Assembly: GCA_964426185.1 (NCBI GenBank)
Contig: CAYRPF010000053.1
Span: forward strand, 1-23,711
Direction: 5' to 3'
Length of the DNA stretch: 23,711 bases
Origin: an uncultured archaeon
GTDB lineage: Archaea > Asgardarchaeota > Lokiarchaeia > Sigyniarchaeales > Promethearchaeaceae
The notes under the pieces are model-generated. The model worked only from the letters and a program-made list of their open reading frames with translations. It was not told the DNA's origin and made no database searches. Positions 10,419 through 22,452 of the stretch are shown piece by piece; positions within the stretch are counted from its first letter, which is position 1; each line of letters begins with the position of its first letter. Position numbers and translations under genes: made by a program.

Positions 10419-11471
10419 TTACATTTGAGCTGTGGAATATCTTCTTTCATGAGCCGCATTATATCGTCTTAATTTGGTGGAATAGGTTGAAATTTTTCCC
10501 AATTTTTCCAAACACCCTATTCCAGTTCCAAAAATCGAAATCCACAGAATTATTCGGAAAATGGAAGTAGGATCGAAATTCCATTGAGAAAATATACGAA
10601 GAACTTCAGGCGAATCTATTGCCCAGAGAAATCTCTGAATGTACAATATCTGAACAACAATCAATCCAATAAGCAATAATTGTTGGGTGTGTACGCGTTG
10701 AATTCCACCAAAGACCTGGAATAATTGGATTATTGCTTCTGCCATTCCTAATACTCCACATAATCTCATAAATTCCAAGAATTCAAGGGTAAATTGGGCA
10801 TTAATTGCTTCTATCGGCTGAATAATCATCATAAGCGCCCAGAATGCGCCCCAAATGGCATCTCCCAATAATGATTTTGTATTAATGGGCGGTTTTACCT
10901 TCTTTAATGATTTTTGAGTATTAAATTCAATATTCATTTCTTCTCTGATTGAATGCTTAATTTTTTCTGTTTCTTGACCCAAATCTTGAGGGAGATATCC
11001 TTGCATACTCAATGCTACGAAAATTATGGTTACAACCACTAATATGGGTAAAATAGAACTCCACAAACCCCCCAACATTCCTGTAAAATTTTCAAGGAAA
11101 GGTTTACTTAGTAATTGAGCAAAGAAAACAATTAAATTTATGGCAGACAGGGCAATTACTGCAAACATAAGAACTTTTTTATAAATTTCCCACCACTCTT
11201 CAGTGATATATATGTAAGGGGTTCCACGTTTTTTATATTCTTTGGTAATACTTTCAGGAGAACCCATTAAGCTGATTGCCTTTTGAATATGTTCCATTGA
11301 AATATCTTGACCATTTGCTAATTCTTCAGCTTTATCCCAGATATGCTCTTCCAATTCGCGTAAGATTTCCCTTTTTTCGAATTTATCATCCTTCAACCAT
11401 CCGGGCAGTTTTTCTTCAACATCTTTTAAAAACGCTTTAATTTCAATTTCCATTTTGTATTTATTATTCAT
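10419..11471 (-). CDS. HAAS-domain membrane protein (PadR partner)
   Basis: 'FLKDVEEKLP...EILRELEEHIWD...AISLMGSPESITKEY' followed by several TM helices. The true start is ATG11471 (AAGGAGG 9 nt upstream), overlapping the padR stop. Confidence 0.8.
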   Translation of the reverse strand: MNNKYKMEIEIKAFLKDVEEKLPGWLKDDKFEKREILRELEEHIWDKAEELANGQDISMEHIQKAISLMGSPESITKEYKKRGTPYIYITEEWWEIYKKVLMFAVIALSAINLIVFFAQLLSKPFLENFTGMLGGLWSSILPILVVVTIIFVALSMQGYLPQDLGQETEKIKHSIREEMNIEFNTQKSLKKVKPPINTKSLLGDAIWGAFWALMMIIQPIEAINAQFTLEFLEFMRLCGVLGMAEAIIQLFQVFGGIQRVHTQQLLLIGLIVVQILYIQRFLWAIDSPEVLRIFSQWNFDPTSIFRIILWISIFGTGIGCLEKLGKISTYSTKLRRYNAAHERRYSTAQM

Positions 11472-12027
11472 GGTGATTTTCCTCCTTTGAAGGTTCATTC
11501 CCAATTAATCCTTCTAAATTGAAACCGCACACCTCGCAAAATCTTACTTCTTGCTGGGATACATCAATTTTATTCGCACAATTGGGACAAAAAAAGTTAT
11601 TTTCATGAAGTTCAACATGCATTTCAAACAAGGTTGACATCGATTCAATAAGTTTATTGAAAAATCCTGTAAGATGATTTTGAATGAGTTGACCCTTTGG
11701 GGTGATAAAATAATATTTTCGGAGTCGATTATTAACCGTTTTCCGTTGAGATTGAATGAGTTCATCTTTTTCCAGCTTTTTTAGAATAGGATATAAAGTG
11801 CCTTCTTCAATTATCAGCATTTGTTTTGTGGTGTTTTCCAGTTCTTTGAGCAATTGATAACCATAAATACCCTCAGGTGAGTGATCATCAATGATTTTGA
11901 GAACAGATATGGTGCTTATGCCCCTCAAAATCTCAGATTCTGCCCTTTCAACAAAATGGCGGAATCCTTCATCACTCATAAGGCTATCCGTTTGAAATGA
12001 CTTAATTCGTTTAATCATATTATTCAC
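11464..12027 (-). CDS. PadR family transcriptional regulator with C-terminal zinc ribbon
   Basis: 'YGYQLLKEL', 'EEGTLYPILKKLEKDELI' and 'RKYYFITPKG'; C-terminal CPNC..CEVC. Confidence 0.92.
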   Translation of the reverse strand: MNNMIKRIKSFQTDSLMSDEGFRHFVERAESEILRGISTISVLKIIDDHSPEGIYGYQLLKELENTTKQMLIIEEGTLYPILKKLEKDELIQSQRKTVNNRLRKYYFITPKGQLIQNHLTGFFNKLIESMSTLFEMHVELHENNFFCPNCANKIDVSQQEVRFCEVCGFNLEGLIGNEPSKEENHHE

Positions 12028-17801: not shown

Positions 17802-19622
17802 TTAGTGATATTTACTTTTTTTCTTCATGGTTTGAACTGCACGCTCAGCCAACTTTACTGCTTCATCCGCCCGCTTTTGCTCTGATTTAAGCTTGTCTTT
17901 CAAATTTTGGGTCTCTACCTTCATACCTGATATTTCTAATTCAAAAGTTTGTATTTTTTCTAGCATTTGGTCCAATTTTGCCTTCATGTTATCCAATAAT
18001 TTGGTTTTTTCTGCCAATTCTACTTTTAAATCATCCCTTTCAGACATTAACTCCGTCATTTTTTCATCGTACATTTGTTCTGGCTTAGGGATCTCTGATG
18101 TATTAGAAGTGGTCATATTTTGCTCAATTTCATTGAGAACTTGATCAATTTCTGAGGCTAACTGGGTTGTTTCTGGAATTTCTGCAAGATTTGATGGAAT
18201 AGATGGAGTAGATAGAATAGATGGGGAATGTTGAGTGGATTGTGTGTATTGAGCAAGTTGGGCTTGCAATCGTTGAATTTCTTGCTGAAGTTCGTAATTT
18301 GTTTGCCGTAAACTGTCAATACGATGATATAATTCCGTAGTTGTAAGCCGCACTCCTTGAAATATTTCAGTAGCTGCGTCTTCCAGAATTTCTTCCGTAT
18401 ATTTCTCTCTAAATTTTGAAATTAAATCGGAACGTGCGATTTTCTCTTCTTTTCCTAATTTTTCTAATATGTTAATCCCCATTCCCCCGTGTATCGTGTA
18501 TCTTTTACGAATTTTCACTTGAATGGGACAGAATGGGGTGATATCTCCTGTAATTATTGCTTCTCCTGGCATTAAATTCTGAATCTCTTCTTCATCGTGT
18601 GAATCTAATCCTTCTGCAGAACTAGTTGTAATTCGTATATCATTAATATCTGTTAATTTATGGATAATCCACGTACCTGCTTGGGCGCGAATTGTAGTAT
18701 CCAATGCTTGAGGTTTTTGAGTGATGACCACCAGATTACATCCAAATTTCCGCCCCTCTTGAGATATCATTTTTACCGTATCCAATGATTTGCTGGCCTT
18801 CTTTCCAGCAAACAAGTGAGCTTCATCTAAGAAAACAAAAACGGGAGGAATTTCACGCATAGTACTTGCTTTATATAAACGCGCTAAAAATTGCTCAATA
18901 ATATTTTCTTGTATTGGAATATCTACTCCTCGTAAGTTTATTGTTATGCATTGACCAGGTAGAATCAATTCCTTCAACTGAATTACTGGAAGATATTTTA
19001 ACGGCAAATCTGCTTGTGGATTATAAGAAATCTCTGCAAATTCAATAATATGTTTTCTAAATGATTTTTCTGGATCATTTTTATTAAAAAAAATTTCAGA
19101 ATCAGGGATATTATTTTCATCAAGTAATTTTAAAGTAGAGTACTCACCATGTCTATCTATAATAATTATCGGAATCTCTTTTTTGAGAAGTTCCTCCAAT
19201 AAAACTCCCACAGTATATGATTTTCCAGAGCCAGATTTGCCTGTAATAAAAACGCGTCCTAATTTTTCTACATTTGGCATAGCACGAAGCCCTGAAATTC
19301 CGAATATTTCTCCTAAGTTTAAGGCCTTTTCTTCAGAAGTGTCCATTCCTATTGCTTTTTGAATTTCTTCAAGGCGCGCTATTCGAATTTTGGAATCAAG
19401 TGGAAAAGGGGTGTGTGGAGGATTTCCAATAATCTTACATTCTCCAAATTGTCCCTTTTCATCATTCCACAAATGAATCGTTGATAAAATAAATGTATTA
19501 GAATCATGGTTAACAGCAATAAATGCTTTTCTGGGGATACTTGTCATTATTTTGAATTTAAACCCAAATGGGGTCGTTTTACCCTCAATATGGCCGATAA
19601 TCTCATCTGATGGTTGATTCAT
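17802..19622 (-). CDS. HerA/FtsK-family (DUF87-type) ATPase with N-terminal HAS-barrel-like region and long C-terminal coiled coil
   Basis: Walker A 'GKSGSGKS', 'IIDRHGEY', Walker B 'VFLDEAHLF' and 'EGRKFG..LVVITQKP'; heptad-rich ~180-aa tail. Confidence 0.88.
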   Translation of the reverse strand: MNQPSDEIIGHIEGKTTPFGFKFKIMTSIPRKAFIAVNHDSNTFILSTIHLWNDEKGQFGECKIIGNPPHTPFPLDSKIRIARLEEIQKAIGMDTSEEKALNLGEIFGISGLRAMPNVEKLGRVFITGKSGSGKSYTVGVLLEELLKKEIPIIIIDRHGEYSTLKLLDENNIPDSEIFFNKNDPEKSFRKHIIEFAEISYNPQADLPLKYLPVIQLKELILPGQCITINLRGVDIPIQENIIEQFLARLYKASTMREIPPVFVFLDEAHLFAGKKASKSLDTVKMISQEGRKFGCNLVVITQKPQALDTTIRAQAGTWIIHKLTDINDIRITTSSAEGLDSHDEEEIQNLMPGEAIITGDITPFCPIQVKIRKRYTIHGGMGINILEKLGKEEKIARSDLISKFREKYTEEILEDAATEIFQGVRLTTTELYHRIDSLRQTNYELQQEIQRLQAQLAQYTQSTQHSPSILSTPSIPSNLAEIPETTQLASEIDQVLNEIEQNMTTSNTSEIPKPEQMYDEKMTELMSERDDLKVELAEKTKLLDNMKAKLDQMLEKIQTFELEISGMKVETQNLKDKLKSEQKRADEAVKLAERAVQTMKKKSKYH

Positions 19623-19734
19623 AGTTTCAATCTCACTTTCATTATAATATAGCTTTTAGGTGTTTATAATTTTCGGGGAGTCCAACTTGAGTTGTCAGAA
19701 AAATGAAGAAAAAGAGGAAAAAATCTTCTTTCAA

Positions 19735-20028
19735 CTATTTCTTAACTAACCGATAGGTTTTATACTCAGTTACCCCATTAAGCGAGTTTTCGCTAATAGG
19801 TACTTGAACAAACATATTTTGATCAACAGGCTTATGAGAAATTTTATTTGAAACTTGAGCTTGCTGGTACTTCTGGAATGATTTAGCTGTTTCTAACTCA
19901 TGGATTAAAAAATCTCTGACTGCCACACGAATTAATTCTGAGCGAGACGGATAAAGACCTTCCTGTCCTGTCAGTGAATCGATGGCTTTCAGATAGGAAA
20001 TCGGTAGATTTACCGTAATGATGCGAAT
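19735..20028 (-). CDS. Ribbon-helix-helix (CopG/MetJ-Arc) regulator, paralog 1, probable ATT start
   Basis: The frame extends upstream of the 63-aa ORF: (I)RIITVNLPISYLKAIDSLTGQEGLYPSRSELIRVAVRDFL. AAGGAGG lies 8 nt before the ATT. There is no in-frame ATG/GTG/TTG before the upstream stop. Confidence 0.85.
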   Translation of the reverse strand: MRIITVNLPISYLKAIDSLTGQEGLYPSRSELIRVAVRDFLIHELETAKSFQKYQQAQVSNKISHKPVDQNMFVQVPISENSLNGVTEYKTYRLVKK

Positions 20029-20065
20029 TAGTGATTCCTCCTTTGTTTTGCTCTCTTTAATTTAT

Positions 20066-20185
20066 TTTACAGAATTATGTGTTAAAATAAATCCCTATTT
20101 ATTAAATGTGTCTTAAAATTCACTGTTTGTGATTATCTTGCAAATGGTATTCTCCCCTATTTCAATAAACACATAATTTTGTAAA
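20066..20185. repeat. 18-bp inverted repeat (17/18) with 84-nt spacer upstream of RHH paralog 1
   Basis: TTTACAGAATTATGTGTT (20066-20083) versus AACACATAATTTTGTAAA (20168-20185). Confidence 0.75.
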
Positions 20186-20418
20186 TGTTTTAGCGTTATC
20201 CTTTCGATTTTCTCGAACTAATAACTAAAGTTACTATGTTTGTGTTCTATATAATCCTTTTGTTTTAGTGAGAAATTTTCTAGTATTAAAGAGATAATAA
20301 ATGCTAAATGGAGGAAAACATTTCCTATAATGTCAAATGCATAATATTTATATTATCTTTTAATAAAAACAGAGTATATTTAAAAAGATATTTAAATGGG
20401 AAGCCATGAAATTAAATA

Positions 20419-20691
20419 TTATGGTGTTTTTATTTTTTTCCAAAATACAACAGATTTAACTTCTTCTGAATCATTTAGGGCTACTGTTTCGTTTTTAGCA
20501 GAGTAATTTAGCCGTTCAAACTCTTTGGCTGCTTCTAGTTCTTTTAATAGGAATTCTCTAACTGCTATTCTAACTAATTCTGAGCGAGAAGGGTATAAAC
20601 CTTGGTGTTTATTGTTAGTGACTAATTTATCAATAGCATTTAAATATGCCACGGGTACATTGCAGGTAATTATTCGGATTGTTTTTTCCAC
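20419..20691 (-). CDS. Ribbon-helix-helix regulator, paralog 2 (start GTG20691 or ATC20679)
   Basis: 'IRIITCNVPVAYLNAIDKLV....GLYPSRSELVRIAVREFL', a clear paralog of the adjacent RHH gene. Confidence 0.88.
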   Translation of the reverse strand: MEKTIRIITCNVPVAYLNAIDKLVTNNKHQGLYPSRSELVRIAVREFLLKELEAAKEFERLNYSAKNETVALNDSEEVKSVVFWKKIKTP

Positions 20692-21162
20692 CCCTTATTT
20701 CTACTAAACAAAACATATGAGTTGTTTTAGATAAATTTTGAAGATAACTGTTGTATAGATTCACTTTCATGAAATTATTTGCCATATCTAAGAGTTTTAG
20801 GAAAACTGGCATTAAATTTTTCCCAATTTTTGTTTGTTGCTTTTAATTTTTCATGACTCTGCTTAAAGTTCGATTTCCTTCACAAACGTATATAGAAATA
20901 ATTATGTCGAAATAGTATAAAAACATTTTTGCTATATAAAGGTATTTGTGGGGAAATATCATTTCATATTCGATTATTGATAATATCTTCTGCTTAACAC
21001 AGGGATAGTGTAAAAATACATTTGAGATTTTATCAAAAATATTTATATTTTTATTAAGACTATTTTGGATGCAGCTACTGAAACATCTTCTTTTTATCCA
21101 AAAAGTAATTAAATTCTGACATGTATTATTGATTAAGTGAACAAGAAAAGGAGACTTCACTA

Positions 21163-22452
21163 ATGAGTTATGATTGGTTTTCCATTATTTTTACATTTGC
21201 CATTTTCGTAACAATTATGATCATTTTCAGCCGAGAAAATGCAGATTATGTGGCTTTTTCTTTGTTGGGAGCCGCGCTCTCTAGTTTGGTGACCTTTTTT
21301 CGATTTCCTGAAGCTCATATTATACAATCAATAGAATGGAAACCCTTGATTTTTATTCTTTCCATGCAGGTTATTGTACTAATTGCCGAACGTCATAAGA
21401 TTTTTCAGTGGGTAGCGGTGAAATCTCTACATCTTACTAAGGGGAATCACCGTATCTTCTTTTATTTAATCTGTATTATTGGCACATTTACTGCTTCCAT
21501 TATTGCAGATGTCACGGTATCAATAATTTTTGTTCCCCTTGTTATTCGAGCATGTCGAATTCTAAAAATTAATCCTGCTCCATACCTTTACGGAATTACC
21601 ATAACGATTAATATCGGTTCAATATTTACTCCATTTTCTTCCTCGGAAAATATCTTAATTAGTTCTAGTTTTGATTTAAGCGTTCAATGGTTTTTTATGA
21701 ATACTGGTATTTTTGTAATATTAGCTTTAATTGGGACTTTAATTCTGTTAGATTTCTTTCTTCTAAGAAAGAATTCACCTCCCACCGAATCTCAGAAGAA
21801 TATATTGTTAGAAATTATGAATCCTGAATTAGTTATTATAGATCGCAAACAATTTATTACCAATTCGATCTATTTTATTATTGTAATTCTTGGTTTTGTT
21901 TTTATGTCCGATTATGCCTTTTTAGTCGCCTTATTTGGTGCGATTATAATGTCACTTTTAAACCGAAATCAATTTACTGATAATCTTACTAAAATTGACT
22001 GGAAAGTGATCTTCTTCTTTATCTCTTTGTTTCTTATTATTGGCAATATGATTGATAATGGCACTTTTGCATTAATTTTAAGCGCTTTACAAGGTTTTTC
22101 TGGGGGTAATCTTTGGGTATTATCATTTAGTGTTTTAATTATTACCAGTCTTCTTTCTGGATTCTTAGCAAATTCTCCCACCGCAATTATTGGAATAAAT
22201 CTTCTTAACGAAATGTTCAATTTCAATCCTCCTGCTATTATAATCATTGCTTTTCTTTTAGGAATTAATTTGGGGGGTAACTTATTACCTCAAGGGGCAG
22301 CATGTGATGTAATGACACTTAATTTAGCAATGAAACATAAAGTAGAAGGTTTTACTTACAAAAGTCTGTTGCGAACAGGAGGAGCATTTGCTGTGGTTCA
22401 TATAGTAATGTGTATTCTGTATTTGACCGGCTACTATTTCGTTGTATACTAA
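21163..22452 (+). CDS. SLC13/ArsB/NhaD (IT superfamily) permease
   Basis: About 11 TM segments; 'IEWKPLIF', 'INIGSIFTPFSSSEN', 'IDWKVIFFFISLF' and 'GINLGGNLLPQGA'. Confidence 0.88.
   Translation: MSYDWFSIIFTFAIFVTIMIIFSRENADYVAFSLLGAALSSLVTFFRFPEAHIIQSIEWKPLIFILSMQVIVLIAERHKIFQWVAVKSLHLTKGNHRIFFYLICIIGTFTASIIADVTVSIIFVPLVIRACRILKINPAPYLYGITITINIGSIFTPFSSSENILISSSFDLSVQWFFMNTGIFVILALIGTLILLDFFLLRKNSPPTESQKNILLEIMNPELVIIDRKQFITNSIYFIIVILGFVFMSDYAFLVALFGAIIMSLLNRNQFTDNLTKIDWKVIFFFISLFLIIGNMIDNGTFALILSALQGFSGGNLWVLSFSVLIITSLLSGFLANSPTAIIGINLLNEMFNFNPPAIIIIAFLLGINLGGNLLPQGAACDVMTLNLAMKHKVEGFTYKSLLRTGGAFAVVHIVMCILYLTGYYFVVY

Follow-up and report, generated by a model that had tools for sequence, protein, structure and literature searches.

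Two tandem ribbon-helix-helix genes of a lokiarchaeon are likely to start at isoleucine-type codons, as are other genes of their lineage

We analyzed two tandem genes for ribbon-helix-helix (RHH) regulators on the minus strand of a lokiarchaeal contig, C53, whose 23,711 nucleotides form the window considered here and which belongs to a 3.26-Mb metagenome assembly with 34% G+C (G000). Judged from sequence and comparison, it is quite likely that translation of both genes begins at an isoleucine-type codon, ATT at position 20028 in paralog 1 and ATC at position 20679 in paralog 2, and that it does so as a lineage-wide habit. Taken singly, initiation of paralog 1 at ATT 20028 is highly likely, and that of paralog 2 at ATC 20679 is reasonably likely. 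The closest relative of G000 is a member of the same genus, 'Candidatus Harpocratesius repetitus' FW102 (G001); Promethearchaeum syntrophicum MK-D1 and a Lokiarchaeum ossiferum-type genome are other members of the family Promethearchaeaceae.

Start regions of the two genes

Paralog 1 (19735..20028, minus strand, with the stop codon at 19735-19737) encodes 97 residues that comprise an RHH domain and a conserved C-terminal tail. Its frame reads TAA(20064) ATT AAA GAG AGC AAA ACA AAG GAG GAA TCA CTA followed by ATT(20028) CGC ATC ATT ACG. As an earlier note on this DNA had claimed, no ATG, GTG or TTG occurs in frame back to the upstream stop: none of the 11 codons between TAA 20064 and ATT 20028 is canonical, and the first canonical in-frame codon of the open reading frame (ORF) list is a GTG at residue 35 (19924..19926, minus strand). 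Ahead of the ATT stands a Shine-Dalgarno (SD) motif, AAGGAGG (20037..20043, minus strand), that is complementary to the 16S rRNA tail. The 3' end of the 16S rRNA of G000 is GGAUCACCUCCU, hence an SD consensus of AGGAGGUGAUC. Aligned SD spacing ahead of the first ATG of long ORFs in this genome peaks at 7 to 10 nucleotides, and the spacer between AAGGAGG and ATT 20028, AATCACTA, falls within that optimum at 8 nucleotides. Initiation at the ATT (20026..20028, minus strand) is thus suggested by the frame and by the homologous starts of paralogs and orthologues. The call at GTG 19926 is false; its truncated product of 63 residues, which begins at residue 35, would lack the ribbon strand and helix 1.

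Paralog 2 (20419..20679, minus strand, with the stop codon at 20419-20421) encodes 86 residues when read from the ATC. The frame runs TAA GGG GTG(20691) GAA AAA ACA ATC(20679) CGA ATA ATT ACC, and the putative initiation codon ATC (20677..20679, minus strand) is homologous to the ATT of paralog 1. An SD-like run, AAGGGGTGG (20688..20696, minus strand), is separated from it by the 8-nucleotide spacer AAAAAACA, and its duplex with the 16S tail is calculated at -9.7 kcal/mol. An alternative canonical start, GTG (20689..20691, minus strand), lies inside this G-rich run. All sequence details given in the earlier note for this arrangement, an isoleucine codon at the homologous position 8 nucleotides after an SD-like run that contains the GTG, hold.

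The note had also likened this context to that of a gene with an ordinary ATG start elsewhere in the window. The comparator is real, with AAAGGAGG-AAAATCACC-ATG matching exactly at 11469-11488 on the minus strand and a spacer of 9 nucleotides. The longest-ORF call for this comparator gene (10419-11504, minus strand) begins at TTG 11504; the perfect AAAGGAGG is located 9 nucleotides upstream of ATG 11471, which from this context is the more likely start.

The homologous codon in paralogs and orthologues

To follow the start codon through the family, we surveyed homologues in 40 related genomes and 80 public contigs. All five remaining RHH paralogs of G000 carry ATG precisely at this codon (their products begin MRLIT, MKLIT, MKIVT, MKMLT and MKNIT). 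The survey of 111 distinct homologue starts returned ATG 93, TTG 17, ATT 16, GTG 3 and ATC, ATA, GTT and TTT 1 each. Where the codon would be read as leucine it is TTG in 17 of 17 cases, a codon that makes up 20.5% of leucine codons in G000. An ordinary hydrophobic site would show TTA, CTT or GTT; the limitation to start types therefore marks this codon as a start position, beyond what chance would give.

Orthologues of paralog 1 have ATT in seven genomes of two genera, namely in all three from Harpocratesius and all four from Promethearchaeum, including MK-D1, and TTG or ATG in sister genera. In the FW102 orthologue a stop codon stands two codons before the ATT, and in MK-D1 a GTG occurs two codons upstream. 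On the minus strand of the MK-D1 chromosome (NZ_CP042905.2), the candidate start of the paralog 1 orthologue is at 444443 and that of the paralog 2 orthologue at 445067. For paralog 2, whose orthologues were defined by position in the tandem pair, all ten genomes, from four genera, have an isoleucine codon (ATT 8, ATA 1, ATC 1). An in-frame canonical start is absent from six of these ten and is found at varying positions in the rest, and G-rich runs are present 7 to 11 nucleotides upstream of the isoleucine codon in every one. The proposal that initiation at isoleucine codons is kept in orthologues is thus supported for both paralogs. The note had expected conserved ATT, ATC or ATA codons among relatives if its claim held, and had taken ATG in orthologues as a sign of recent start loss or sequencing error. 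The tabulation returned both: the isoleucine codons are conserved, and ATG occurs in some orthologues. The ATG of these orthologues marks the start position. It does not point to a recent loss, since ATT has been kept by species that are saturated at synonymous sites.

Within the RHH family, the calculated SD duplex is stronger on average before ATT, ATC or ATA (-8.6 kcal/mol) than before ATG (-6.7 kcal/mol), in a comparison of relatives that are not independent, so that the test overstates the difference. A tree of 48 RHH sequences, with 19 open forks, was resolved too poorly for clades of paralog 1 and paralog 2 to be delimited or for the origins of ATT, ATC or ATA starts to be counted.

Two orthologues had unusual start regions. 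In the metagenome-assembled genome ABR01 (G021; L019:1418-1776, which is the same locus as L069), part of the gene, its first 78 nucleotides, is repeated in tandem ahead of it in diverged form. The partial copy has an ATG start and encodes 26 residues before a stop, and the full-length copy starts with ATT, 5 nucleotides after GGTGGTGAT. In the sister genome G036 the gene is single and starts with ATG. A genuine duplication, from which an upstream mini-ORF arose, or an artefact of assembly would explain the arrangement in ABR01. In the second case (CAZDJH010000098.1; L124:601), GTT occupies the start position, with a AAGGCGAT run upstream and 11 open codons before it that include no in-frame canonical start. 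This codon could be a true GTT start or could stem from an error in sequencing.

Isoleucine-type starts elsewhere in the genome and lineage

We scanned G000 for ORFs of at least 100 codons whose 5' part lacks a canonical start, scoring a strict SD word 6 to 10 nucleotides ahead of each candidate codon, with spacing controls. The weak 5-mers GTGAT and TGATC were left out of this strict scan; their inclusion gave noisy enrichment. A strict SD preceded 23 of 741 ATT, ATC or ATA codons versus 59 of 5882 other codons (odds ratio 3.2, p = 2e-5). By the same criteria, first canonical starts comprised ATG 96, TTG 10 and GTG 10. Most genes of G000 have no strict SD, which is present at 96 of 808 first-ATG starts. 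As a rough estimate, ATT, ATC and ATA starts appear to be about on a par with GTG or TTG starts among the strongly SD-led genes of this genome.

In nine of 20 candidates scanned against Pfam, a domain match already begins before the first canonical start. The largest subunit of RNA polymerase, RpoA1, has a putative ATC start, a match to Rpb1 domain 1 from residue 9 and its first canonical start 18 codons in. With ATT as the candidate start are TFE-alpha (match from residue 13; first canonical start 51 codons in), MutL (ATPase match from residue 19; 50 codons), MoaA (radical-SAM domain from residue 19; 74 codons) and a PAS histidine kinase (match from residue 20; 36 codons). ATC stands at the corresponding position in genes for a TrmB-type regulator (match from residue 33; first canonical start 49 codons in), a DUF2229 protein (residue 8; 22 codons), a DUF1922 protein (residue 3; 37 codons) and a DRG-type GTPase, which has a weak RsgA match from residue 30 and a G domain from residue 66 (42 codons).

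Two of these genes could be followed across genomes. In rpoA1, ATC or ATT lies exactly at the ATG with which the MSY... proteins of other families begin, in seven genomes of three genera (Harpocratesius, Lokiarchaeum-type and Promethearchaeum, including MK-D1), and in the Lokiarchaeum-type genomes a single codon separates the upstream stop from the start. In MK-D1 the rpoA1 start is near 3660265 on the minus strand. In tfe, an ATT, ATC or ATA start is found in four genera. These comparisons indicate that the two RHH paralogs are one instance of ATT, ATC and ATA starts that extend through the core genera of the Promethearchaeaceae (Harpocratesius, Promethearchaeum and Lokiarchaeum-type).

We made two further observations on individual genes. 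The tfe gene of another genome from the same genus (G002:C364; L190) has CAA at the usual ATT/ATC/ATA position and an ATG six codons upstream, by which it appears to have replaced its start. On contig C17 of G000, a frame of 4291 open codons runs on the plus strand from 25235 (L137:101), with a stop two codons upstream, GGTGAT 6 nucleotides before an ATT and 73 codons without a canonical start. Its first 450 residues had no Pfam match, and the frame may encode a giant protein with an ATT start.

Alternative starts, decay and error

Some points weigh against initiation at the two isoleucine codons and its extension to the lineage. The genome-wide excess amounts to only about 16 genes under the strict criteria, which leaves the frequency estimate rough; in this genome an in-frame GTG precedes the ATC of paralog 2 by four codons; codons 3 and 4 of both genes also encode isoleucine, and the NCBI record of the FW102 orthologue begins at codon 4; and the source genome is a metagenome assembly, 92% complete. 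The last three each bear on a different explanation of the start regions.

In one rival reading, only paralog 1 has an isoleucine start. Paralog 2 would then begin at GTG 20691 and encode 90 residues (MEKTIRIIT...), as the ORF finder called it, and the lack of an SD would be no bar, given how few first-ATG starts of this genome have a strict one. The codon is nevertheless part of the SD-like run and lacks an SD in front of it. Orthologues do not share it; they have a canonical codon elsewhere or not at all, and those without any in-frame canonical start make up the majority. Nor are the four residues that this GTG would add conserved, and all orthologues retain ATT, ATA or ATC at the homologous codon behind a G-rich run. 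We therefore consider a GTG start of paralog 2 unlikely.

The neighboring isoleucine codons raise a different alternative, in which ribosomes would start at codon 3 or codon 4 (ATC 20022 or ATT 20019 in paralog 1, and ATA and ATT in paralog 2). The FW102 record that begins at codon 4 (P0004, 94 residues, M-TVNLP) is in keeping with such a start. SD spacing would increase to 14 or 17 nucleotides, outside the 7-10 nucleotide peak, and codon 1, rather than either of these two, is where homologues with a canonical start have their ATG, TTG or GTG. Residues 2-4 (R/K-I-I) are moreover conserved as part of the ribbon strand. On this evidence a start at a later isoleucine codon is improbable.

Lost or misread starts would also produce a gene that opens without a canonical codon, and both the metagenomic origin of the assembly and the ATG or TTG of orthologues in other genera could be taken to favor decaying pseudogenes or sequencing and assembly errors. 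The divergence of the genes argues strongly otherwise. Between species of the genus, codons 2-34 of paralog 1, which are the most constrained part of the gene and precede the GTG, have a ratio of non-synonymous to synonymous differences per site (pN/pS) of 0.03-0.08 with pS at about 0.8, which is saturated; across the whole coding sequence, pN/pS is 0.03-0.19 against same-genus species, and for paralog 2 it is 0.145 against FW102. Purifying selection is thus strong on the entire frame, and we saw neither frameshifts or stops in orthologues nor pN/pS near 1. The SD is retained at functional spacing. Errors are countered by the occurrence of ATT in seven genomes, two of which, FW102 and MK-D1, are closed, and by agreement among contigs from several independent runs: position 20028 was reproduced without difference by contigs of three other metagenome runs (X1, X2 and X5) and positions 20679-20691 by contigs of two (X2 and X3), one of the runs used being possibly the sample from which G000 was assembled. 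Decay or error is thus very improbable indeed, and initiation at ATT 20028 and ATC 20679 remains the reading that we prefer.

A lineage trait or a regulatory device

How initiation at these codons might work can be outlined from the sequences. The SD, complementary to the 16S 3' tail and about 8 nucleotides upstream, would set the isoleucine codon in the ribosomal P site. Initiator Met-tRNA would pair with the A and U of the codon and tolerate a mismatch at the third base, so that the protein would begin with methionine. Such starts are probably weaker than AUG, a deficit that stronger SD pairing would offset.

A weak start could also be a selected device that keeps these two regulators scarce or makes their synthesis sensitive to the stringency of start selection, as with the AUU of Escherichia coli infC, and this was the interpretation offered in the earlier note. 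The trait is present in both tandem copies. All ten paralog 2 orthologues, from four genera, keep ATT, ATA or ATC even though the third base has changed at least two times, never to G, and the stronger SD before such codons than before ATG suggests tuning. Two third-base changes that avoid G are, however, not significant. Unrelated and essential genes of the genome and lineage also use ATT or ATC, the other five RHH paralogs of G000 have ATG, and paralog 1 orthologues have ATT, TTG or ATG depending on the genus. The aIF1 gene of G000 starts with TTG, so that no link between the RHH locus and aIF1 is evident.

We therefore doubt that the codons were selected as a device for these regulators. 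A trait that is spread through the lineage and includes essential genes, together with the ATG of other RHH paralogs and the TTG or ATG of paralog 1 in sister genera, means that a regulatory role specific to the two genes is not specifically supported; it is unproven, and nothing in the data needs it. The part of the note that treated the weak start as particular to these regulators accordingly lacks support, since ATT or ATC starts also occur in rpoA1, tfe, mutL and moaA. The stronger SD before ATT, ATC and ATA and the retention in all ten paralog 2 orthologues could still hint at some tuning.

The sole SUI1/aIF1 gene of G000 lies at G000:C16:47744-48085 (L187:1399-1740), where its TTG start stands behind TGGAGTGA, neither an ATG nor an isoleucine codon.

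Relation to known systems and significance

AUU start codons are established for E. coli infC, which encodes IF3, and for pcnB, and ATT, ATC and ATA are alternative starts in genetic-code table 11. The lokiarchaeal genes resemble infC and pcnB in combining a near-cognate AUU-type codon, its presumed decoding by initiator tRNA and an SD with the absence of an available canonical start and with conservation across species. They differ in that the lokiarchaeal machinery is archaeal, with aIF1, aIF1A and aIF2, and not based on IF3. Many lokiarchaeal genes also share the trait, among them rpoA1 and tfe, whereas infC encodes a single autoregulated factor, and the aIF1 gene of G000 itself starts with TTG. 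We know of no experimental demonstration of ATT, ATC or ATA initiation in archaea.

Among Asgard archaea, a 'likely rare ATT start codon' has been proposed for the tubulin gene atubA of Kariarchaeaceae, in the class Heimdallarchaeia (Sci Adv 2026, PMC13394414). As in the genes studied here, the ATT of atubA lies upstream, is plausibly spaced from a ribosome-binding site and restores a conserved first beta-strand (PMC13394414). The earlier proposal concerned a single gene in another class; here there are two paralogs supported by orthologues, together with many other genes of Lokiarchaeia. In the literature that we searched, atubA was the sole Asgard case, and we found no systematic account of ATT, ATC or ATA starts in Asgard or other archaea. 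On present comparisons, the two RHH genes are very probably further cases of near-cognate, SD-assisted initiation, in a lineage where such starts are unusually common.

A broader proposal can be framed from these data, and we regard the chances that it is right or wrong as evenly balanced. AUU, AUC and AUA would be regular start codons in the core genera of the Promethearchaeaceae, including both cultured Asgard model organisms, at about the frequency of GUG and UUG among SD-led genes and even in rpoA1 and tfe. Discrimination against them by aIF1, aIF2 and initiator tRNA would be relaxed or compensated by the SD, and the retention of an isoleucine codon in all ten paralog 2 orthologues would result from selection that keeps the output of an autoregulatory RHH protein low. 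The matter bears on the strictness of start-codon selection in the archaeal relatives of eukaryotes: if such starts are regular, then close relatives of eukaryotes would have relaxed, or offset through the SD, the start discrimination exerted by a eukaryote-like set of aIF1, aIF2 and initiator tRNA. The same codons are present in the cultured MK-D1 and in Lokiarchaeum-type genomes, which makes the question testable in culture.

The starts also matter for annotation. ORF callers that admit only ATG, GTG and TTG return a 63-residue fragment without the DNA-binding ribbon or add spurious 5' extensions, and essential genes of the lineage such as rpoA1, tfe, mutL and moaA are misannotated in the same way. 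The claim that gene callers would truncate or miss the RHH family was correct in part. One database entry is a 63-residue truncation of the GTG 19926 type (P0088), another call in the family is over-extended to 145 residues (P0007), and the FW102 record is cut to codon 4. The window's own paralog 1 protein, on the other hand, is already recorded with 97 residues beginning MRIIT, so some annotator used the ATT.

Protein family and genomic neighborhood

Both genes are, on domain and codon-level evidence, intact and under selection, and they encode RHH DNA-binding proteins of the CopG/Arc/MetJ type. The two products are 61% identical across 56 residues. Paralog 1 exceeds the Pfam cut-offs for RHH_8 (PF17723; 27.9 bits, cut-off 25.4) and RHH_1 (PF01402; 25.8 bits, cut-off 20.5), with the RHH match beginning at residue 4, and paralog 2 scores below both gathering cut-offs (RHH_8 23.2, RHH_1 15.9 bits). 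An AlphaFold2 monomer model of moderate confidence (predicted local distance difference test score 68.5) has residues 1-9 extended or coiled, helices at residues 10-20 and 29-62 and, as a monomer, no assigned strand. The domain match and the order of putative N-terminal strand region, helix and helix agree with CopG, Arc and MetJ; the lokiarchaeal proteins differ in being encoded as a tandem pair with a partly conserved spacer of 390 bp.

Further toward the C terminus, a tail of the form FVxVP...KTYKIVKK is conserved in paralog 1 and its orthologues across Lokiarchaeia (alignment A1), reads FVxVP...EYKTYRLVKK in paralog 1 itself and is modelled as a beta-hairpin. The best NCBIfam matches of both paralogs were CdrS, from Halobacteria, and aCcr1, from Sulfolobales and others, which are likewise short archaeal RHH proteins with a ribbon strand from residue 2. 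The lokiarchaeal family differs from them in its additional C-terminal hairpin tail and in adjoining a gene for a HerA-like ATPase, not ftsZ2. We rejected membership in CdrS (NF058555; 24.5 bits against a cut-off of 100) and in aCcr1 (NF053762; 18.9 and 17.1 bits against a cut-off of 60). Co-transcription with ftsZ2 is characteristic of CdrS, and no FtsZ gene was found among the scanned ORFs of the window.

The HerA-like ATPase gene is the downstream neighbor of the pair (17802..19622, minus strand), with DUF87 and HerA_C matches in Pfam and a coiled-coil tail. It also adjoins the pair in the Harpocratesius, Lokiarchaeum-type and MK-D1 loci. The other neighbor encodes a CitMHS/ArsB-type permease.

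An Rfam scan of 19500-21200 returned no family match to the intergenic spacer, and its only hit, a sub-threshold Y-RNA-like match, was rejected as chance (20.9 versus 97 bits, E = 0.43). The two paralogs are separated by this 390-bp spacer (20029..20418, minus strand), in which blocks are conserved between species of the genus. In alignment A3 its mean column identity is 72%, with long blocks identical between G000 and FW102, for example TTAATACTAGA..AAAACAAAAGGATTATATAGAA, GTGTGTTT and ATTTTAACACA.AATTCTGTA. Because these blocks are conserved although flanking synonymous sites are saturated, they suggest a promoter and operators, and the spacer probably holds those of paralog 1. Each block could represent an operator, a promoter or a small RNA.

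We also looked for the tRNA genes of G000 with aragorn, which reported 26-36 tRNAs in the 92%-complete assembly. Neither tRNA-Met nor most other tRNAs were detected by this program in the incomplete assembly, introns being the probable cause. Among those that it did report are a tRNA-SeC (anticodon tca) and, at C1:102950-103072, an intron-bearing tRNA-Ile (anticodon tat).

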